From Deltaproteobacteria bacterium (GTDB lineage Bacteria; Desulfobacterota; Binatia; HRBIN30; JACQVA1), in NCBI GenBank assembly GCA_016210005.1, contig JACQVA010000127.1, positions 835-64,834 of the forward strand: DNA of 64,000 nucleotides. Direction: 5' to 3'. Made by a program: the position numbers and the translations under genes. Under the pieces are notes generated by a model that saw only the letters and a program-made list of their open reading frames with translations, made no database searches and was not told the origin of the DNA. How positions within the stretch are numbered: the first letter of the stretch is position 1; each line of letters starts with the position of its first letter. Positions 1 through 9,908 of the stretch are shown here, in pieces.

Positions 1-2498
1 TCGCGTGAGGCATGGGCGCCGTCGAGCTTGCAGACTTCCCCAGCCTCACATACGCCGTCGTTGTCGCCGCCGGCGGCCCCGTTGTCCTCGATCTTCAGGC
101 CGACTAGTTCGTTGTACTGCTCGTGGTGTTGAATGTAGTCGCCGGATATCTTCGCCCCGTTGGTAAGAATAGCGGGGTTTGCATCACCGCCGCACTCTGC
201 CCCCTGGCCGGCGGTGTTTTCCGCCCTGATGTGGCACTTACCGCAGGCGTCTTTCGATGTACTGAGGCCCATGTTGTTCCCGGACGGGTCCTTGACGTGA
301 TTCACGCCCGTGCCGTGGCAGGCCTCACACTGCACGCCAGTGAGGGACCAGGAGCTATAGAATCCGCCGTGGTTCGCCACCGGGCTCATGCCGGTGCTAG
401 CCCAGGGCTCGGTTCGGGCCGGTGAGAGATCGGTCCCCGGATCGGTGTAGCAAGAATATCCGGAGGTCGAGACGATGCCGTTGGTGTTGTGACAGATAGC
501 GCACTCGTACTTCTTGGACTGACCCGAAGAGGAGCCGTAGGTGGACCAGTCGGCCCGTTTGCTCGCGGGATCGAGAGTCGGGTCGGCCGCCAGCATGTTG
601 AACTGGGCGGCGTAGCCACCGACCAACGAGGCGGCGGACCAGACGTATCCGCTCTTGTCGTCACCGGTGCTGTCTTTGATTCCCCACCTGGCCTTCCAGC
701 CGAAGCCGCCGATCACATAGTTCACGGCGGCCCAGTCAAGCTTGCCGTCGCTGTCGCTGTCGATCTGGCTCGTTGGCACGCTGGCATCGGCATTGAGCGC
801 GGCGACGGACACGATCGTATTGTCCCCGCTGCTGGTGAGCAGAGCCGAAAGCGGGTCCGAACTGCCAGTCGGGGTTGCCCCGGCGGTCATCCTGACCTTG
901 TACGGATGCCCGGACTTGGTGAATTCGTCGTACTCCGCGGCATGGCAACCGGCGCAGGTGGTGGAGCCGACATAACCGCTGTCGATGCCCGTCACGTTGT
1001 GATAGCCGGTTGACTCCGTCTGTGCCGTCGCCTCGTCCGTCGGGCCGGCGATGACGGAACCGTAGATGTTGCTGTCGTGGCACTTACCGCAGGCGTACTT
1101 GGGCGTGATGTAGTTCTGCGCCACGTTAGTGAAGCCATTGCTTCGCACAATGCTCGATCCCGTCGGATTGATGTCGAAGATGTGGGTCTTCAGATCGCCC
1201 TTGCGGCCCCAGCCCGCCGTCGAGTAGTTGATAGCCGTCTTCGTAGCCTCGGCCATGTGACAGTCGACGCAGGTAACGGAGGCATGATCGCCATGCTTTC
1301 CGGTCGGGTTCGCCAACGCACTGGCCGCGTCCGCATCCGCCTGCGCCTTGTGACAGTCGGCGCACTGTTTTCGGATCGCACCGGGCTCCGGATTGGTGTT
1401 GTCGCCAGTGATGCCGAGGGCCGTTGCCACTGCTCCGATGACGCCCACGGCGCGCTTGTGGGGGTCGTGGCAGGTGACGCAGGTCAGCGACTGGTGGACG
1501 CCGTCCTCACTCAAGCCGTGCATCTCGTTGTACTGTTCGTGATGATTGATGAAGGGATCGGCGATCTTGGCGCCGTTGGTCAGGATGGCTGGATTCGCAT
1601 CCCCGCCGCATTCGGCACCGGTGCCGGCGGTGTTCTCCGCGCGGATGTGGCACTTGGCGCAGATCTCGACGCCGCCGGACAGCGTAAGTACGCTTTGCGT
1701 GACGGAAGCACCCGCGTCCGCGTGCCCGGTACTACCGGCGTTGCTGCCCTTGCCGTGACAGGCCTCGCACTGGACGCCGTCGAAGGTCCACTGGCTTCTG
1801 TAGCCGCCGATCTTGCAGGCTTCACCGGTCTCACAAACGGTGTCGTCGTTGCCGATGCCGTCGCCAGCGATTTCCTCGAGTTCCATGCCCGGGTTCGTCA
1901 ACAATGGCTCGGAACGGTTGGAGGTGAGGGGGTCGGTGTAACAACTGTAGCCGTAGGTAAAGATCGACCCGTTCGTCTGGTGGCAGGTGGCGCATTCGTT
2001 CTTCTTGTCCGTATTCGCGTTGTATGCGGACCAGGAGCCGTTCTCGAGGTTGTACTGGCTGGTTCCGGTCCAGACATAACCCGTCTTCACAGCGGCGGGG
2101 TCATTCACTCCCCATCGGATCTTCCAGCCGTAGCCGCCGATCGCATAGTTGATGGCCGACCAGTCGAGATTCAAACTCCCGTCGCAGACAATGAGTCCAT
2201 CGCCGCAATCCTCACCCAGCGTCAACGTGTCCAGGCCCAAGCCGGGCGGCCTCGGAAACAGGCCCGTGAGGGGGTCTGTGGGGAGGGAGCCGCCGGTGTG
2301 CCGGTACTTGTAAGGGTGGCCGGTCTTCTGGAAGCTCATCTTGTTCGTCGCCGCAGAGCCGTCATGGCAGGTCAGACACGCGGCGGTGCCCACATAGCCG
2401 CCGTCGATGCCGCTGGCATGCGCCGACGCGGCGAGGAAGACGAACAAACACGCCGCCATGTAGTGGACTGGCGACAGCTTCTTGCTCGGTTTCTTCAT
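1..2498 (-). CDS. Secreted multiheme c-type cytochrome, at least 12 CXXCH heme sites in window. Partial: the C-terminal part runs off the window start.
   Basis: The reverse-complement translation from ATG at 2498-2496 gives MKKPSKKLSPVHYMAACLFVFLAASAHA, which is a signal peptide. The GGAGAG RBS lies at 2501-2511 (RC). The frame stays open down to position 1. I counted twelve CXXCH motifs: CLTCH, CATCH, CEACH, CAKCH, CVTCH, CADCH, CVDCH, CGKCH, CAGCH, CAICH, CEACH and CGKCH. The long ORF is missing from the track because it has no in-window stop codon. Confidence 0.8.
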   Translation of the reverse strand, partial: MKKPSKKLSPVHYMAACLFVFLAASAHASGIDGGYVGTAACLTCHDGSAATNKMSFQKTGHPYKYRHTGGSLPTDPLTGLFPRPPGLGLDTLTLGEDCGDGLIVCDGSLNLDWSAINYAIGGYGWKIRWGVNDPAAVKTGYVWTGTSQYNLENGSWSAYNANTDKKNECATCHQTNGSIFTYGYSCYTDPLTSNRSEPLLTNPGMELEEIAGDGIGNDDTVCETGEACKIGGYRSQWTFDGVQCEACHGKGSNAGSTGHADAGASVTQSVLTLSGGVEICAKCHIRAENTAGTGAECGGDANPAILTNGAKIADPFINHHEQYNEMHGLSEDGVHQSLTCVTCHDPHKRAVGVIGAVATALGITGDNTNPEPGAIRKQCADCHKAQADADAASALANPTGKHGDHASVTCVDCHMAEATKTAINYSTAGWGRKGDLKTHIFDINPTGSSIVRSNGFTNVAQNYITPKYACGKCHDSNIYGSVIAGPTDEATAQTESTGYHNVTGIDSGYVGSTTCAGCHAAEYDEFTKSGHPYKVRMTAGATPTGSSDPLSALLTSSGDNTIVSVAALNADASVPTSQIDSDSDGKLDWAAVNYVIGGFGWKARWGIKDSTGDDKSGYVWSAASLVGGYAAQFNMLAADPTLDPASKRADWSTYGSSSGQSKKYECAICHNTNGIVSTSGYSCYTDPGTDLSPARTEPWASTGMSPVANHGGFYSSWSLTGVQCEACHGTGVNHVKDPSGNNMGLSTSKDACGKCHIRAENTAGQGAECGGDANPAILTNGAKISGDYIQHHEQYNELVGLKIEDNGAAGGDNDGVCEAGEVCKLDGAHASR
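108..2400 (-). repeat. Intragenic tandem duplication with a period of about 1.42 kb inside the cytochrome gene
   Basis: Nucleotides 108-243 align with 1526-1660 (for example ...cgttggt.agaa/gatggc.gg.tt.gcatc.ccgccgca...gtggcacttaccgca / gtggcacttggcgca). The protein repeats the blocks GYSCYTDP, GDANPAILTNGAKI and HHEQYNE. A further copy may lie off-window. Confidence 0.6.
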
Positions 2499-2620
2499 GA
2501 TGCCTCTCTCCTTTTCGCCTTCCTTCAGACCTCTCACAGTCGCCCGATCGGAGACTCGGACGCCATCCGATGGAGCGCTCGGGCCACAACCACCGCCGAC
2601 CTTGCCCCGCAGCGCCTCAC

Positions 2621-2637
2621 CGCAAGACACGTGCCTT
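2621..2637 (-). promoter_or_regulatory. Sigma-54 (-24/-12) promoter for the multiheme cytochrome
   Basis: The RC reads AAGGCACG-TGTC-TTGCG. Consensus is TGGCACG-N4-TTGCW, and the GG-N10-GC spacing is exact. It lies about 125 nt upstream of the cytochrome start codon. Confidence 0.55.
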
Positions 2638-2687
2638 GGCCATCGCGCAAACCGGCGTTGCGAGCACGCCGCCCGAACCGAAACGTT

Positions 2688-2705
2688 TGTCACGTAGCTG
2701 TGACA
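2688..2705. promoter_or_regulatory. Perfect palindrome TGTCAC-N6-GTGACA, a putative enhancer (UAS) for a sigma-54 activator
   Basis: A 6-6-6 inverted repeat sits about 60 nt upstream of the -24 element. Additional TGTCAC / GTGACA half-sites occur at about 2756 and 2800. Confidence 0.35.
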
Positions 2706-2788
2706 GATAAGGAGATTGAAAGAACCGCTCTCGATGCAGAACTTCGGCGCATAGCGTGTCACATCGATGAGACGGCTGAGGTTCCGAT

Positions 2789-3085
2789 TCACACCGACGT
2801 GACAGATGGCTGTGTACCGCGAAAGGCCTTGGGGTTGAGGCTGTGCTTCTTGAGCAGGCGGTACAGGGTGCCGCGAGGAAGCTGCGCCTCGCGCGCCGCA
2901 GCGGCAACGTCCCCGCAGTGGCGCTCAAGCAGGCCCGCAATAAACTCTCGTTCAAACGCAGCTAATCGCTGCATTCGCAAGGCAAAGAAGCCTCCTGGCC
3001 GTTGGCCTGAGTGGCTGGGATCATTCGCGGCTGGCGCTTGATTACCGGCAAGGGAAACATCATCGAGGATCATCGCCATACTCAC
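2789..3085 (-). CDS. Standalone Fis-type HTH DNA-binding mini-protein (98 aa), a paralog of the C-terminus of the NtrC-family activator at 5631-7019
   Basis: The mini-protein reads GGFFALRMQRLAAFEREFIAGLLERHCGDVAAAAREAQLPRGTLYRLLKKHSLNPKAFR. The activator C-terminus reads GGFFQLRAQRVMAFEKEYLAELLERWQGDVSRAAREARLPRGTLYRLLKKHDLNADDFR. Upstream there is no room for a receiver or AAA+ domain. Confidence 0.5.
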   Translation of the reverse strand: MSMAMILDDVSLAGNQAPAANDPSHSGQRPGGFFALRMQRLAAFEREFIAGLLERHCGDVAAAAREAQLPRGTLYRLLKKHSLNPKAFRGTQPSVTSV

Positions 3086-3093
3086 TTGGGCAA

Positions 3094-3112
3094 GCTTGGG
3101 TCACTTCCAAGC
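3094..3112. promoter_or_regulatory. Palindrome GCTTGG-N7-CCAAGC with flanking GCAAGC repeats, a candidate operator
   Basis: The inverted repeat lies in the divergent intergenic region between the mini-HTH gene and the response-regulator gene. GCAAGC / GCTTGG units repeat four times across 3085-3130. Confidence 0.3.
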
Positions 3113-3147
3113 CGCAAGCTCCGTGCCGAGCAGTTGCACGCGATGAC

Positions 3148-3164
3148 AGGGCACGACGGTTGCT
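3148..3164 (+). promoter_or_regulatory. Sigma-54 (-24/-12) promoter for the RR-HK-activator operon
   Basis: aGGGCACG-ACGG-TTGCT has exact consensus spacing. It lies about 95 nt upstream of the ATG at 3260. Confidence 0.55.
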
Positions 3165-3259
3165 GCCACGACGTGCAAAAGGCGCCCGACGAAGCCTGAA
3201 GGTTAGGTTGCCAGGGCGAGGGCGGGTCTATCTCCGCTCGCTCGTGACGAGAGGGAACG

Positions 3260-3652
3260 ATGGCGAAGGTGCTCGTGATTGACGACGAACCAATGATTCT
3301 CTGGCCAATCCAGCAAGTGCTGGGCGCCGCTGGCCATCAGGTCTGCGTCGCCGAGAGCGCGGCGCAAGGGTTGAGGTTGTTTCAAGAACAGCGTCCCGAC
3401 GTGATCCTTCTCGACATACGGCTGCCCGATGTAGATGGTCTAACGATCTTGCGACGGATCGTTGCTGAAGGCGGACCACGAACCGCCGTGATCATGATGA
3501 CTGCCTTCGACGACTGGGGTGCGAACCGGAGCGCGGCCATGAGTCTGGGTGCCGCCGCATACCTCGCCAAGCCCTTTGATTTCGAGAAGCTCGACACGAT
3601 AGTCCGAAAGACGCTCGCGGCGCAGCCAGGTGCGGATCGCCCAGGCCGATGA
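3260..3652 (+). CDS. Single-domain response regulator (CheY-like receiver)
   Basis: MAKVLVIDDEPMIL...ILLDIRLPDVDGL...MMTAF...AAAYLAKPF shows the receiver Asp and Lys motifs. Confidence 0.85.
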   Translation: MAKVLVIDDEPMILWPIQQVLGAAGHQVCVAESAAQGLRLFQEQRPDVILLDIRLPDVDGLTILRRIVAEGGPRTAVIMMTAFDDWGANRSAAMSLGAAAYLAKPFDFEKLDTIVRKTLAAQPGADRPGR

Positions 3653-3781
3653 CGTGACCCGGCGCACCCCCTAGTGAAGCTCGCTCTCCGCCGCGGCCCC
3701 GGGGTTTAGCATCGAGGCGCACGAGACGCGGGCACGCGGTGTCGTTCCGAGCGCGCCTGTGATAATTGGCCTGCGCGGCAG

Positions 3782-5630
3782 ATGTGGCGCCTATTCATCA
3801 AGCGTGGAGTTAGCGAGGGTGAGGCCGGCGGCATTGCCCCCGAGGCCCACTGGTTCATTTCAACCCGTTGGGCCGCCGTAGCGGTCGGGACCATCGTGTC
3901 CCTGGTGGCAGGCGCCTACGGCGTGCTGCCGCCGGACGTCTTGGCGCGCCTGCTCATTACCATCGCCGGCTCGGCAGGATTGAACATCGGCTTCGCCATC
4001 ATGGCGGGCCACGAAGCGTGCAAGCCCTACCTGCTGGCGCTCCAGATGTACGCCGATCTCGCGATCCTGACGATCCTGCTGCACCTCACCGGCGGGGTCG
4101 AGAATCCGCTGTGCTTATCGCTCCTGATCCACGTGGCCCTCGGCGGTATCCTGCTCTCACGGCGGCAATGCTACCTGGTCGCCACCGCTGCCAGCGTGAT
4201 GTTCATGCTGATGGCGTGGGGCGAATGGTCGGACCTCTTGCACCACTATTTCGTTCCTGCCTTGCCGCACGGAGAGCCGGGGTGGAAGGCCGATGCCGCG
4301 CAAAACACTTTCTATGTGGCTGGCCTCACCAGCCTGCAAACGGCACTGTTCTTCTTCGTGGCCTACATCGTCACCACTTTGGTAGAGCGCGCGCGCTTCC
4401 AAGAGCGCCGGCTCGAAGCCCTGGCGGCGCAGGCGCGGGCCGAGCGCCGACTACTGGAGCAGGCCCTCCAAACCACCGGTACAGCGCTACGAGTCAGCGG
4501 CTCGAACCTGCGCTCTCGCTGGATGAATGGCCGCTGGCAAGAATGGTTCGGCACCGGCGATTCCGGGGGCTTGCCGCTTGACCGGGGTTCGGACCGGCTC
4601 CGCAGTGGCCTCGCAACCGCGGGCGGCATGCCCGTCGCCGCCGAGATCTCGCAAGCGATTGAGTGCCGGAGCGTGGCGCCGGACGGGATTCGCGTTACTG
4701 AAGTCGTCTTGCCGTCGGGAAAAGCAGCCCCGGGCAATGCCCGCAGCGGTCGGCATGACCGCGTCTTTCGTGTCACAATCGCTCCGTTAACCAGCGGCGA
4801 CGGCCCGGCCGGTGAGTTCGTCGAGTTGGCGCAGGAGATCACCGAGCAGAAGCAGGCTGAAGCCCAAATGATGCGCGCCGCCAAGCTGGCGGCGGTGGGT
4901 GAACTGGCCGGCCATGTCGCCCACGAGGTCAACAACCCCATCGCCATCATCAGCGCCAAGGGGCGATTGCTCTTGCAAGACCACCGCGACGAGATGTCGG
5001 CCAAGACCGCGGCAGAGGTCAACAAGATCGTGGAATTTGCCGACCGCGTCGCCCGCATCGCCCAGGGGCTGCTTTCCTATTGCCGTCCGTCCGCCGCCGT
5101 TCGCACTCCGATCAGCATCCACGCGCCCATTCGTAAGGCCCTGTCGATGATCGAGGAGCGCGCAACCAGCGGCGGCGTGCGCATCGACGAGCGTTTCGGC
5201 CAGGCGAGGCCGACGATCCTCGCCAACAGCTCCGAGATGGAGGAGATCTTTCTCAACCTTTTTCTCAACGCCCTCGATGCCATGCCCGCCGGCGGCGTGC
5301 TGACCATCGCCACGGCCGGCCCGGACGACCACCGCGGTGAGCCGGCGGCTCCGGCCACACTCGCGCCGGACGGCGCCGCGGCGCCGTCCGTTAGCGTGGT
5401 CATCGAAGACACCGGCCACGGCATTGCCGAGGAGGTTCGCAACGAGATCTTCGAGCCTTTCTTCACCACCAAGGAAGCCGGACGCGGTACTGGTCTCGGC
5501 CTGGCGATCTGTCTCGGCATTGTCCGCAATCATGGCGGCACCATTGCGGTCGACAGCGAAGTTGGACGCGGCACCAGGTTCACGGTCAAGCTTCCGGCCC
5601 ACATGCCGAACGAGAGCGTGGATACGCAGT

Positions 5631-5638
<8 letters not shown>
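3782..5638 (+). CDS. Membrane sensor histidine kinase (N-terminal multi-TM domain, HisKA, HATPase_c)
   Basis: The H-box is ELAGHVAHEVNNPIAII. N/G-box motifs are LNLFLNALDAM, EDTGHGI and GTGLGLAI. The N-terminus is hydrophobic. Confidence 0.85.
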
Positions 5639-7019
<1,381 letters not shown>

Positions 7020-7073
7020 TCGCCGCCGTGCGTTCCTGGATCGCCGCGGCCACGCCCCGAAACGGCAGTTCGA

Positions 7074-8180
7074 TCACGAGCTGCTTGGCCCGGCGGCTGG
7101 CCGGCGGCGCTCGGCAATGGAGGTGGGGCCGAGCAATGTCGACGGCAGGTTGATGGTGCCGCCGATGTTGGAGTACGGATAGTGACGCGCGTTCACATGA
7201 GCGTGTACTGGCACACCCAGGCCGTCGTGAATTTCGTAGTCGAGGGAGAGCGGGCCGAGGCTGCTCAAGATCGCTTGGAGCAGATCGGCAAGCGTGTGCA
7301 GCTGCGCGGCCGGCAGATCGACTACCCGCCCGCGATAGCTCGGAAGCACGATCTCGTAACTGCGCGGGAAGATGCCGAAGGGGCAGAAGTACGACACCCA
7401 GCCGTCACGCCGTTCGAGCACGAAGCCTTCACCATCCATGAAGCGGATGATTTCATCCCACAGCCCGGGCTCGCCGGCGAGCGCCGCGGCTTCGAGCTCG
7501 ACGGCCGCGAACGGCAGGTCGGAGCCGATCACCTGGCAATGCAGGTGGGGCTGCGAGGCGCCCGAATCGCGGCCCTGGTTCTTGCGCACCAGCACCGCGT
7601 TCACCGCCGGGTTGCGATACGCCCGGCGCGCCACCACTATCGCCGCCTCGATCAGGGCACGAAACTGTTCGGGCGGCAGCATCGCGGTGTAAAGAATATC
7701 CTCATGGCCGCGCGCATCGTCGGCGAAGTGGCGCGGATCCTCGACCACAACGTACGATTCGTTGCGCCCGCCGGTGCAGCATTCCGGCAAGCGCGGCACG
7801 ATGTTGTAGAAAGCGCGAATCAGCCAATCACCCCGGGTATGGCTGGCGGCCGCGTGCGCACCGAACACCTGGCTCGGGCTCAGGCGACAGACCTCTTCCA
7901 TCGTCAAGTGCTCGTTACCGGGGCAAAACGCGCAATCGCGGCGTGCCCGTTCCAATTCCGCGCGCCGCTCGGCCTCGGCCGCCACCGAGTCCGGCGGGGC
8001 CGGTCGCAGCGCGGCTTCCTGTGCGCGGCGGATGAAACCACTGCGCTTGAGATGCACATGAGTGAAGTAGGTGATCGCGCGGGTGAAGGGATTGCGCACC
8101 CAGACGAGTTGATCGCCGTCCTTGCGGAACTCAACCGGCATGGCCGCATCCAAACTGCCAGCCCCGGCGCGCAGGTGCAA
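7074..8180 (-). CDS. GalT-like HIT-superfamily nucleotidyltransferase (galactose-1-phosphate uridylyltransferase / ADP-glucose phosphorylase-like)
   Basis: CAFCPGNE is a Zn-binding CxxC-like motif. SQPHLHCQVIG is an HxHxQ-type active site. There are two half-domains. The true start may be the internal MPVEF at about 8141. Confidence 0.5.
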   Translation of the reverse strand: MHLRAGAGSLDAAMPVEFRKDGDQLVWVRNPFTRAITYFTHVHLKRSGFIRRAQEAALRPAPPDSVAAEAERRAELERARRDCAFCPGNEHLTMEEVCRLSPSQVFGAHAAASHTRGDWLIRAFYNIVPRLPECCTGGRNESYVVVEDPRHFADDARGHEDILYTAMLPPEQFRALIEAAIVVARRAYRNPAVNAVLVRKNQGRDSGASQPHLHCQVIGSDLPFAAVELEAAALAGEPGLWDEIIRFMDGEGFVLERRDGWVSYFCPFGIFPRSYEIVLPSYRGRVVDLPAAQLHTLADLLQAILSSLGPLSLDYEIHDGLGVPVHAHVNARHYPYSNIGGTINLPSTLLGPTSIAERRRPAAGPSSS

Positions 8181-8225
8181 CCGTGTTGCACTTGTTCCCG
8201 GAAGCCGGCGCCCAGCGGGCGGCGG

Positions 8226-9908
8226 TTACGGGCTCTGGTTGCTGACAATCCAGCGGTTGCCGATGTGGGCCACGACCCACATCGGCTCGGGCACAATCCC
8301 CACCATCGACTGGCGGCCTCGTGCCAGCGGATCGGACACCAGGAAGATGCGCTCAGCGCCGTGCCAGCGGCGCTCCAGTTCAGCCCGGTCGATGAACAGC
8401 TCGCCCTGATGCGGCGCCAAGTACGGCGGCGGCACGAAGCCAGCGGGGCGCAGCACGGCCCACTTGCGGCGGGTGTAGAAGAACAAGCCGGCGCCGCTCT
8501 GGTACTCGATCGGAGCTTCGTAGACCAAGGTGTCGCCCGCGGCCGCCACGTTGTTAATGACGGCCGCCAGCGGTGCGCTCGAGTTGAACGGCGCCATCAT
8601 CGTTAGTCCTTGACGCATGATCGGCACCAGCGCGCACATCGCCACTAGCACCGGGCCGGCCGCCAACCGCGGCCGCACCGCGGCCAGCGCCAGCATGGCC
8701 ACCGCCGCGGCCGTGAAGACGTACCCGGCTAGCCGGCTCAATTCGGGCAGTCCTGTGGCCGCTTCGAGAAAATCGGCCGACGCCAACAGCGGTGGCACCA
8801 CCAGCACCATCCCGACGCCGGTGCCGATCAGCGGCAGTACGTGCGCAATCAGCAGTGCGCGTCCCAGCCCGTTATGGAAGAGCGCGCCGACCATCAGCGC
8901 GCAGGCCGGCAGCGCCGGGATGGCATAGTGCTCTAAGCGCGATCCGGCGGCCGAAAACAAGGCCATCACCGCAGCGGCCCAGCCCAGCACTAATCCGCCC
9001 GCCCATCGTCGGCTGAAATCGCCGCGGGGCCGGAGCTTAACCGCGGCCAGCGGAACAAACACCGTCCAGGGAAACAACCGTGCCGCAAACGCGGCCCAGA
9101 AATGCCAGAGTGCGATCCCCTCTGAGTCGCGGGGAATCTTGCGATCGAGGAAGAACAGCAGGTGTTGGTTGACGATGTAATCCCAGGCAAAGCCCGCGTG
9201 GCGCAGCCCCGCCACCACGTGCCACGGCACAACCAGCAGCGCGAACAGCCACCAGGCGCGTGGGTGCGACAGCGTCCGAACCAGCTCAGCACGACCGGCC
9301 GCCAACACCGCCACTACCAGCGCGCCGCCCGGCAGCAGCAGCCCGACTATACCTTTGGCCAGCAACGCCGCCGCCAACGCCACCTGCCAGCTGATCAGCG
9401 CCCAACGATCAGTGGGGCATTGCCGCAGGCGGGTACATGCCAGCAACGCCCCGGCAACGGCCGCCGTCAGTAGCAAGTCAGGGCGCACAAAGCGCGCCTC
9501 GATCAGAACGCCCGCGGTGCCCAGCCACACCGCCGCGGCATTGAGCCCAACCCACTCGTTCCACAGCGCGCAACCCAGGCGCCACATCAACCACGCCAGC
9601 ACCAGCGCACTCAACGCCCCCGGCAGGCGCGCGGCTAACTCGCTTACGCCGAAGATCTTATACGACACCCCGATCAGCCAATACGCCAGCGGCGGCTTGT
9701 TGAGGAACAGCACGCCGTCAAGCTGCGGGCTGAGCCACTCGCCGCTCTCGACCATCTCACGCGCCACCTCCGCGTATTGCGCGTCGTTGGGGTCGTCCAG
9801 CAACACCGGCTCGCCCAGCCCGCTGCCGTAAACCCACGCGGCCACCGCCAGCACAACGACTAGCAGTGCCGCCGCCGCTTTCGGTGGCGCCAGGCGCGCG
9901 GCGAACAT
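8226..9908 (-). CDS. GT-C fold glycosyltransferase (GT39/GT83 family, ArnT/PMT-like), polytopic membrane protein
   Basis: YAEVAREMVESGEWLSPQLDGVLFLNKPPLAYWL is the ArnT/PMT signature region. There are many TM segments. The start is taken at MFAARL. Confidence 0.65.
   Translation of the reverse strand: MFAARLAPPKAAAALLVVVLAVAAWVYGSGLGEPVLLDDPNDAQYAEVAREMVESGEWLSPQLDGVLFLNKPPLAYWLIGVSYKIFGVSELAARLPGALSALVLAWLMWRLGCALWNEWVGLNAAAVWLGTAGVLIEARFVRPDLLLTAAVAGALLACTRLRQCPTDRWALISWQVALAAALLAKGIVGLLLPGGALVVAVLAAGRAELVRTLSHPRAWWLFALLVVPWHVVAGLRHAGFAWDYIVNQHLLFFLDRKIPRDSEGIALWHFWAAFAARLFPWTVFVPLAAVKLRPRGDFSRRWAGGLVLGWAAAVMALFSAAGSRLEHYAIPALPACALMVGALFHNGLGRALLIAHVLPLIGTGVGMVLVVPPLLASADFLEAATGLPELSRLAGYVFTAAAVAMLALAAVRPRLAAGPVLVAMCALVPIMRQGLTMMAPFNSSAPLAAVINNVAAAGDTLVYEAPIEYQSGAGLFFYTRRKWAVLRPAGFVPPPYLAPHQGELFIDRAELERRWHGAERIFLVSDPLARGRQSMVGIVPEPMWVVAHIGNRWIVSNQSP

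Follow-up and report, generated by a model that had tools for sequence, protein, structure and literature searches.

What can a gene do that encodes only the DNA-binding end of a sigma-54 activator and lies on regulatory DNA beside such an activator? The question is raised by a stretch of 64,000 nucleotides from a Deltaproteobacteria bacterium (assembly GCA_016210005.1, contig JACQVA010000127.1, positions 835 to 64,834), referred to below as the window, in which an open reading frame (ORF) of 98 amino acids, called here the mini-HTH gene or mini (2789..3085, minus strand), encodes a Fis-type helix-turn-helix (HTH) protein near the gene of an NtrC-family activator (5640..7019, plus strand). Sigma-54 activators, also known as bacterial enhancer-binding proteins (bEBPs), are usually pictured as self-contained machines of sensor, ATPase and DNA-binding parts, and to our knowledge the known negative control of these proteins acts on the ATPase or on phosphorylation. 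Comparison with related loci indicates that the mini is a real, selectively maintained gene and not a decaying remnant. The reading favored here, to which we give about an even chance of being correct, is that it is a functional, retained partial duplicate of a PilR/NtrC-type activator that would compete at the enhancer and thereby exert negative feedback.

A stand-alone Fis/NtrC-type DNA-binding domain

The mini reads for 98 codons from a GTG at 3085, with alternative starts at ATG 3079 and ATG 3073. The NCBI call begins at ATG 3073 and gives the 94-amino-acid protein P0001 ('hypothetical protein HY699_11860', Deltaproteobacteria metagenome-assembled genome, MAG); exact-sequence look-up of the window protein and of P0001 returned no record for either. 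The similarity to the tail of the activator, put at about 70% over 60 residues in the preliminary description, was reproduced by BLASTP, which aligned mini residues 31-90 with activator residues 400-459 at 42/60 identities (70%, E 2e-26). The whole mini corresponds to activator residues 372-459 (approximately 88 residues, encoded at 6753-7016 of the window), that is, to the inter-domain linker, the Fis-type dimerisation helix and the HTH. The related mini of locus L001, described below, aligns over its full length with activators, and its start methionine aligns with an internal methionine of the activator (M372, MSHRAVISLDDLPDE..., MSHRAVISLDDLPDEIVIQ...) where the AAA+ lid ends; the GTG-initiated MSMAMILDDV of the window mini corresponds to the same Met372 stretch.

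HTH_8 (PF02954, 'Bacterial regulatory protein, Fis family') is the only Pfam domain in the mini, with 25.8 bits against a cut-off of 22, and the four other minis discussed below, P0002, P0017, P0169 and P0199, score 25.3, 28.6, 29.2 and 25.9 bits, respectively (gathering cut-off 22). Pfam found no AAA+ sigma-54 interaction domain (PF00158) in it, a domain that bEBPs require, and the mini is therefore not a bEBP. It does possess the C-terminal DNA-binding domain (DBD) of this class, as seen in its identity to the activator tail and in profile matches to NtrX, ZraR and NtrC4, and weakly to Fis (E 1e-4, Fis residues 16-98). No NCBIfam model reaches its cut-off on the mini, and the sub-threshold matches are only to the C-termini of full-length sigma-54 activators. 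The mini is thus a stand-alone Fis/NtrC-type DBD that lacks an ATPase.

In an AlphaFold2 (AF2) model with a mean predicted local distance difference test score (pLDDT) of 80, residues 31-90 are placed with a pLDDT of 89-98, and helices occupy residues 33-55 (23 residues), 60-67, 71-80 and 85-88, the HTH being formed by 60-67 and 71-80. The protein thus divides into a linker-derived part (residues 1-32), predicted to be disordered and free of secondary structure (pLDDT 50-55), and a part made up of the long helix and the HTH (residues 33-88). The best Foldseek matches in the PDB are Fis and the NtrC4 DBD (3e7l, 4fth), with a root-mean-square deviation of 0.7-0.9 A over 47-49 residues and a probability of approximately 1.0, although the E-values of 0.3-1 are weak, the domain being small. 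All residues that are nearly invariant in an alignment of 76 tail sequences are present in the mini (R37, F44, E45, Y48, L52, L53, G58, A63, A64, A67, P70, R71, G72, T73, Y75, R76, L77, K79 and R89). Mini and neighboring activator have the same recognition helix, LPRGTLYRLLKKH, and because of this identity the mini is predicted to bind the sites of the activator.

The long helix also bears on a different mode of interference, in which the mini would form mixed dimers with the activator DBD through this helix and upset both tethering and hexamer assembly. Mini and activator share the hydrophobic positions of the helix (FALRMQRLAAFEREFIAGLL and FQLRAQRVMAFEKEYLAELL, respectively), and the logic of such a poison subunit is familiar from truncated transcription-factor paralogues. 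However, minis and activators diverge most strongly in precisely this helix (RLAAFERE versus RV[MV]AFEKE; ERH/DRH versus ERW/RRC), while the DNA-contact helix is strictly conserved, which argues for selection on DNA binding itself. Mixed dimerisation as the function of the mini is considered unlikely.

The mini was also considered as the remaining piece of a frameshifted or split full-length activator. The claim that there is no space upstream for REC (receiver) or AAA+ domains holds, as the gap to the divergent REC gene, which starts at 3260, is 174 bp, an in-frame stop lies five codons 5' of the GTG, and no AAA+ sequence is found upstream; the mini therefore cannot be a frameshifted full-length paralogue. 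A separate observation concerns the mini frame 5' of its start, where 3140-3196 of the window (minus strand) translates to GFVGRLLHVVAATVVPCHR, faintly similar to the activator lid motif GNVRELQNVVKRTLTMSHR. The similarity amounts to 7/19 identities across a stop codon and a 16-residue gap, and has no counterpart in the related loci L001 and L013. Possibly the duplication was longer at first and this segment, where the divergent sigma-54 promoters now lie, is what is left of the extra part; this is suggestive only and is not relied on here.

Two syntenic orthologues of the window mini were identified, P0002 with 94 amino acids (loci L001 and L002) and P0017 with 88 amino acids (loci L013, L014 and L015). 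The window, L001/L002 and L013-15 share the order mini, three palindromes, sigma-54-type promoter and homologous multiheme cytochrome gene, and in L001 an orthologous kinase gene is divergent from the mini, which itself has a GGAGG Shine-Dalgarno sequence six bases 5' of its ATG. Over the 56-57 alignable codons, the proportions of non-synonymous and synonymous differences (pN and pS) between the window mini and the two orthologues are 0.13-0.17 and 0.75-0.84, the latter saturated, with the frame kept, and those between the L001 and L013 minis are 0.13 and 0.51-0.53. Low pN beside saturated pS is a clear sign of purifying selection at the protein level, with the conservation not lying at the DNA level. 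The preliminary description had named lack of conservation or disruption in close relatives as the mark of a duplication remnant; in both orthologues, however, the reading frame is unbroken and purifying selection acts on it.

The description of the mini as a stand-alone copy of the tail of the adjacent activator holds in part. The mini is a paralogue of a bEBP C-terminus, and the saturation of synonymous sites between it and the activator tail (pS 0.85-0.87) marks the duplication as old. In a 57-residue core, the window mini is most similar to another mini, P0002 (45/57); the tail of the adjacent activator shares 40/57 residues with it, and those of P0165 and P0003, which are unrelated activators from the same subfamily, share 41/57. 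By sequence comparison, the mini is therefore tied to this activator by adjacency and not by sequence, and descent from this particular activator is not demonstrable. In a neighbor-joining tree of the 57-residue tails, the three syntenic minis group together with 26% bootstrap, and the tails are too short to decide on a shared origin of the window-type minis and the mini of locus L021 (26% and 3% bootstrap).

The mini family is restricted in its distribution. Mini-specific peptide patterns searched against 185,579 species genomes hit eight loci, all of them full-length activators, and no orthologue. Several short HTH_8 proteins were tried as further minis and rejected. P0181, P0182, P0197, P0026 and P0054 are HTH pieces that lie at the end of an AAA+ ORF or no more than approximately 190 bp from it, come mostly from error-prone assemblies and were left out of the family, and many other short database matches are contig-end fragments beginning at an internal methionine of full-length activators (MTRH..DDLPDE, MIGLDDLPDE). 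Short HTH_8-only proteins in L016, L017, L018, L020 and L022 (ENA ERZ250394xx/ERZ250395xx and one NCBI MAG) are often 3' pieces of frameshift-split activators; in the source assemblies the neighboring genes are mostly fragmented too, and several of the split activators lie upstream of a P-II gene. Any census of mini-HTH genes must filter out such pieces.

Promoter elements and enhancer sites around the gene

A sigma-54-type promoter element, CGGCACGGAGCTTGCG, faces the mini at 3113..3128 on the minus strand (GGCACG-N4-TTGC core 3114-3127), 28-40 nucleotides upstream of the candidate starts, and matches the pattern TGGCACG-N4-TTGCW at 10 of 12 positions (-24 GG, -12 GC). Back-to-back with it and 20 bp apart, GGGCACGACGGTTGCT at 3149..3164 on the plus strand (core 3150-3163) precedes the divergent operon of REC, histidine kinase and activator genes, and a third element, AGGCACGTGTCTTGCG at 2621..2636 on the minus strand (core 2622-2635), precedes the multiheme cytochrome gene. 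The Poisson probability of three GGCACG-N4-TTGC elements within 540 bp is approximately 7e-6, the expectation for a looser sigma-54 pattern being 4.2 matches in the whole 64 kb. The mini had been described as sitting between two sigma-54 promoters; these are the outer two (2621-2636 and 3149-3164), and the third, at 3113-3128 and facing the mini itself, had been overlooked.

Three enhancer sites lie between the mini and the cytochrome promoter. Site a (2787..2804), which reads TGTCAC-N6-GTGAAT on the minus strand, overlaps the last codons and the stop codon of the mini; site b (2757..2774), 30 bp from site a centre to centre, matches TGTCAC-N6-GTGACA at 10 of 12 positions; and site c (2688..2705) is a perfect TGTCAC-N6-GTGACA palindrome, the sole perfect match in the window. 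Read on the minus strand from 3260 downward, the order is sigma-54 element, mini, sites a, b and c, sigma-54 element and cytochrome ATG at 2498. The spacing between sites a and b is 30-31 bp in the window, L001, L013, L011 and L021. Site a is conserved in L001, L013 and L021, and in L013 and L021 it lies past the stop codon of the mini, so what is conserved is the DNA element, not a protein tail. An apparently conserved protein tail, QPxVTxV, was accordingly reinterpreted as read-through into site a, since the minis of L013 and L021 stop before the site.

Site a bears on the proposal that the mini has diverged in specificity, being specialised on this asymmetric site or on other targets, and would work without the bEBP as a conventional small regulator, repressing or activating. 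The GTGAAT half-site variant is conserved beside every mini, and the minis evolve two to three times faster than activator tails (pN 0.13-0.17, compared with 0.06 between the activator tails of the window and L011), yet remain constrained. Against this, an a-type site (ATTCAC...GTGACA at 2236-2253) is also present in L011, where there is no mini, and the recognition helix is unchanged. Diverged specificity is therefore given a slim chance.

Elements equivalent to these promoters occur in the related loci. The counterpart of the mini promoter in L001 is CGGCACAACACTTGCC (GGCAC-N5-TTGC), at the same distance as in the window. The core of the cytochrome promoter, GGCACGTGTCTTGC, is also present in L021, and L013 has GGTACGTGTCTTGC instead. 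The L001 element at 686-702 reads as a sigma-54-type promoter on both strands (CGGCACAACACTTGCC on the plus and TGGCAAGTGTTGTGCC on the minus strand), so that the mini and the divergent kinase of L001 may be served by fully overlapping, mutually exclusive sigma-54 promoters; those of the window are separate. No sigma-70-like promoter and no terminator on the mini strand were found in 2300-3400, and an Rfam scan of positions 1-9000 returned no RNA family at E <= 0.1.

Related loci and the origin of mini genes

Two further loci carry minis whose surroundings point to how such genes arise. In L019 (GCA_036679605.1), a PilS-like kinase gene is followed by a gene for a complete activator of 459 amino acids, enhancer sites, a sigma-54 promoter, a gene for a 276-amino-acid multiheme cytochrome and a terminator, and then by a duplicate unit composed of a 70-amino-acid HTH_8 ORF (P0199), enhancer sites, a sigma-54 promoter and a second cytochrome copy. 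The last 199 bp of the L019 activator gene match the mini at 84% identity ungapped (BLASTN), and the next 1.2 kb are duplicated at 87.5%; the start of the duplicated unit therefore lay within the 3' end of the activator gene. The tree groups the L019 mini with the activator of its own locus in 100% of bootstraps; this mini therefore arose independently of the window mini, which is the one solid result of the tree on origins. It has no Shine-Dalgarno sequence. It too is constrained, with non-synonymous and synonymous substitution rates of dN 0.077 and dS 0.67 (dN/dS ratio, omega, 0.11). The two tandem copies in L019, at 2573-3983 and 4009-5514, differ in their divergence, with a dS of 0.18 between the cytochrome copies and of 0.67 between the tail copies. 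This difference suggests a complex history, or gene conversion acting within the cytochrome pair.

In L021, sites a and b lie within approximately 20 bp of the activator stop codon and are followed by CGGCACGTGTCTTGCC, the mini P0169, sites a, b and c, GGGCACGTGTCTTGCG and a gene for a secreted protein of 477 amino acids. P0169 is 71 amino acids long and has a GGAGG Shine-Dalgarno sequence, and the promoter that precedes it has its own enhancer sites. The segment of activator 3' end plus sites is 69% identical to that of mini plus sites. In this regulon family the enhancer sites begin a few bases after the activator stop codon, and duplication of an enhancer with its target therefore also copies the 3' end of the activator gene onto an enhancer. 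Such tail capture also explains why site a overlaps the stop codon of the mini in the window and in L001. The two architectures suggest that tail duplication happened independently at least twice, and by analogy with L019 and L021 the window mini would have originated in the same way.

A closely related locus does without the gene. L011 is a 14.9-kb contig, and its source metagenome also yielded L002. It contains the kinase gene (68% identical), the activator gene and a divergent gene for a cytochrome of 1137 amino acids; because this locus lacks a mini, the mini is an accessory modulator and not a core component. The first 141 bases of L001 and its last 116 (1561-1676) are identical to L011 (reverse strand 6560-5481), 141 being the k-mer size of the assembler, while the interior differs by approximately 17% in the N-terminal part of the kinase gene and is unalignable in the intergenic part; L002 equals positions 585-1676 of L001. 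Versions with and without the mini therefore occur side by side; they are either alleles that recombination has exchanged or two paralogous loci whose flanks have been converted. A metagenome scan with the kinase N-terminus found two loci only, L011 and L012, the latter a distant locus with no mini in the stretch covered. L011 also has a second cluster of three enhancer sites in the a-b-c arrangement at 2129-2253, with spacings of 31 and 76 bp, downstream of the first cytochrome gene, and its regulon probably has at least one more target promoter near these positions.

The genes around the window mini are those of a two-component, sigma-54-type system and its putative target. A secreted multiheme c-type cytochrome of more than 832 amino acids with many CXXCH motifs (1..2498, minus strand, running off the window) is the putative target; its Pfam domains are Cytochrome_C7, an MtrC/MtrF domain and Paired_CXXCH, and it is 43% identical to the L011 cytochrome. 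The protein is internally duplicated, its N-terminal module GIDGGYVG..C..CH..GHPYKYR being repeated from approximately residue 504, and the two-module pattern is also seen in the L011 homologue. On the plus strand, a stand-alone REC gene (3260..3652), which is not found at the equivalent position in L001, L011, L019 and L021, opens the divergent operon and is followed by a histidine kinase gene with a PilS-like six-transmembrane (6TM) domain (3782..5638; Pfam 6TM_PilS, HisKA and HATPase_c) and by the activator gene (5640..7019; REC, AAA+, lid and HTH_8). The activator falls below every NCBIfam equivalog cut-off, the best being AtoC with 442 bits against 714. The idea that the mini supplies a DBD in trans to an activator without one was rejected, as HTH_8 is present in the neighboring activator itself, which is also the only sigma-54 AAA+ protein encoded in the window.

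Proposed function and comparison with known systems

Competition with negative feedback, exerted by a protein without an ATPase, is the most likely function of the mini as judged from its sequence and setting. The protein would dimerise through its long helix and fold like the DBD of NtrC4 or Fis, and would bind the TGTCAC-N6-GTGACA sites a-c. Lacking an AAA+ domain, it could not remodel sigma-54 RNA polymerase, and its occupancy of the sites would compete with the activator and damp cytochrome expression, possibly also expression from the two other sigma-54 promoters of the region. Since a sigma-54-type promoter precedes the mini, it would be induced together with the target, closing a negative-feedback loop. 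Inactive bEBPs bound to their upstream activating sequences can reportedly repress, as in the case of DctD. The anti-activator role put forward in the preliminary description is a reasonable one, given the identical recognition helix and the position on the enhancer; nothing was found in support of the insulator role proposed alongside it.

Several observations weigh against the competitor reading. The Shine-Dalgarno sequence of the window mini is weak, and its GC content at third codon positions (GC3) is 0.64, compared with 0.80-0.85 in neighboring genes, which may reflect low expression or foreign origin; a GC3 well under that of the neighbors is also seen in the REC gene (0.68). The mini-promoter equivalent of L013, CGACACGTCGCTTGCA, is degenerate, its -24 GG reading GA. 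No enhancer site of at least 9/12 matches lies upstream of the mini promoter in the window, and its activation would therefore need sites a-c acting from downstream. In L011, the interval of approximately 210 bp between kinase and cytochrome genes holds two palindromes and a GGCAT-N5-TTGC element and no mini. In a search of 1.84 billion representatives, only the mini's own cluster fell below 1e-30, and the family is very rare. Finally, the sequence fits cooperation with the activator as well as competition.

Some of these points would be consistent with a non-functional by-product, in which the ORF is the leftover 3' end of a duplicated activator gene, untranslated and useless. The architectures of L019 and L021 show that such an ORF can originate passively through segmental duplication, the gene is absent from L011, and a weak Shine-Dalgarno sequence in the window, none in L019 and a low GC3 point the same way. 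Nevertheless, four to five diverged lineages have kept the frame open, the window-type orthologues combine a pN of 0.13-0.17 with saturated pS, the L019 copy has an omega of 0.11, GGAGG Shine-Dalgarno sequences precede the minis of L001 and L021, and all family-invariant residues are present. The selection data therefore make a useless by-product very unlikely.

Cooperation would take the form of an architectural co-activator, a mini that bends or pre-organises the enhancer or bookmarks its sites, as Fis or the integration host factor (IHF) does at other sigma-54 promoters, and so aids activator assembly and looping. The mini has the Fis fold, and its gene is flanked by the enhancer on one side and, on the other, by two more sigma-54 promoters for which no separate enhancer is present at the 9/12 level. 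Provided that its own sigma-54 promoter is active, it would be induced along with the target. However, an identical recognition helix leads one to expect binding to the same sites as the activator and not to sites between enhancer and promoter, the N-terminal arm and helix A of Fis are absent (residues 1-32 being disordered) and L011 does without the mini. A co-activator is accordingly regarded as rather unlikely. Taken together, the sequence evidence shows the mini to be a real and rare accessory gene for a regulator; how it was born is clear, and a competitive function is plausible.

If the competitor reading is true, a selected, separate copy of a DBD on the enhancer and behind a sigma-54 promoter would constitute a new layer of control, enhancer occupancy by a dead-end binder. 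As the targets are large multiheme cytochromes, the module may tune a costly machinery of extracellular electron transfer.

Truncated paralogues and isoforms of transcription factors are known as dominant negatives, among them the short C/EBP isoforms that keep the DNA-binding part, TrlR of Agrobacterium and the plant microProteins. Like the proposed mini, they are partial copies that lack the activating module and interfere at shared sites or dimer interfaces, but they belong to other protein families. The C/EBP isoforms are described in PMC12507421. A targeted literature search of incomplete coverage found no natural DBD-only paralogue of a bEBP. The DBDs of NtrC4 (3e7l/4fth), NtrC1 (4l5e), ZraR (1ojl) and NtrX (5m7n), which are the best fold and profile matches of the mini, are three-helix domains and tether activators to palindromic enhancer sites. 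Isolated bEBP DBD structures among the PDB matches are 3e7l, 4fth, 4l5e and 2m8g, one of them bound to double-stranded DNA. These domains are parts of full-length proteins or laboratory truncations, whereas the mini is a gene of its own with its own promoter-like element and is under selection.

In Geobacter, bEBP genes adjoin their RpoN-dependent targets, and cytochromes of extracellular electron transfer belong to the RpoN regulon (PMC2725144). PilS/PilR-type control in Geobacter resembles the window in the position of the bEBP gene beside the target and in the PilS-like 6TM domain of the window kinase, and the paper on the RpoN regulon describes no DBD-only partner (PMC2725144). NinH of phage lambda is likewise a small stand-alone HTH protein of the Fis/NtrC type and binds DNA as a homodimer (PMC7166090). 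Unlike the mini, it is encoded by a phage, is similar over only approximately 30 residues and is not linked to a sigma-54 regulon.

The closest known parallel in form is Fis of E. coli and Pseudomonas, a stand-alone HTH_8 protein of approximately 98 amino acids that superposes on the mini at 0.8 A over 49 residues (Foldseek) with 24-31% identity. With 70% identity, the mini stands much nearer to bEBP tails than to Fis, whose N-terminal beta-hairpin arm and helix A it lacks. Fis is a global nucleoid protein, whereas the mini is confined to one regulon beside a parent-type activator and is very rare. The missing arm and helix A, the lack of a curated-model match and the narrow, locus-bound distribution all set the mini apart from Fis proper. 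As cited in PMC7166090, Fis was proposed to descend from the C-terminus of NtrC (Morett and Bork, 1998). The related loci described here provide a concrete birth route, duplication of a target that drags along the adjacent 3' end of the activator gene, which mirrors that proposal. More tentatively, and as something we hold to be possible but doubtful, PilS/NtrC-type regulons of extracellular-electron-transfer cytochromes may repeatedly have released the activator tail, copied along with the abutting enhancer, as a sigma-54-induced competitor without an ATPase that builds negative feedback into the enhancer. The mini would then be a dominant-negative bEBP of natural origin and a present-day intermediate on the path thought to lead from NtrC to Fis.

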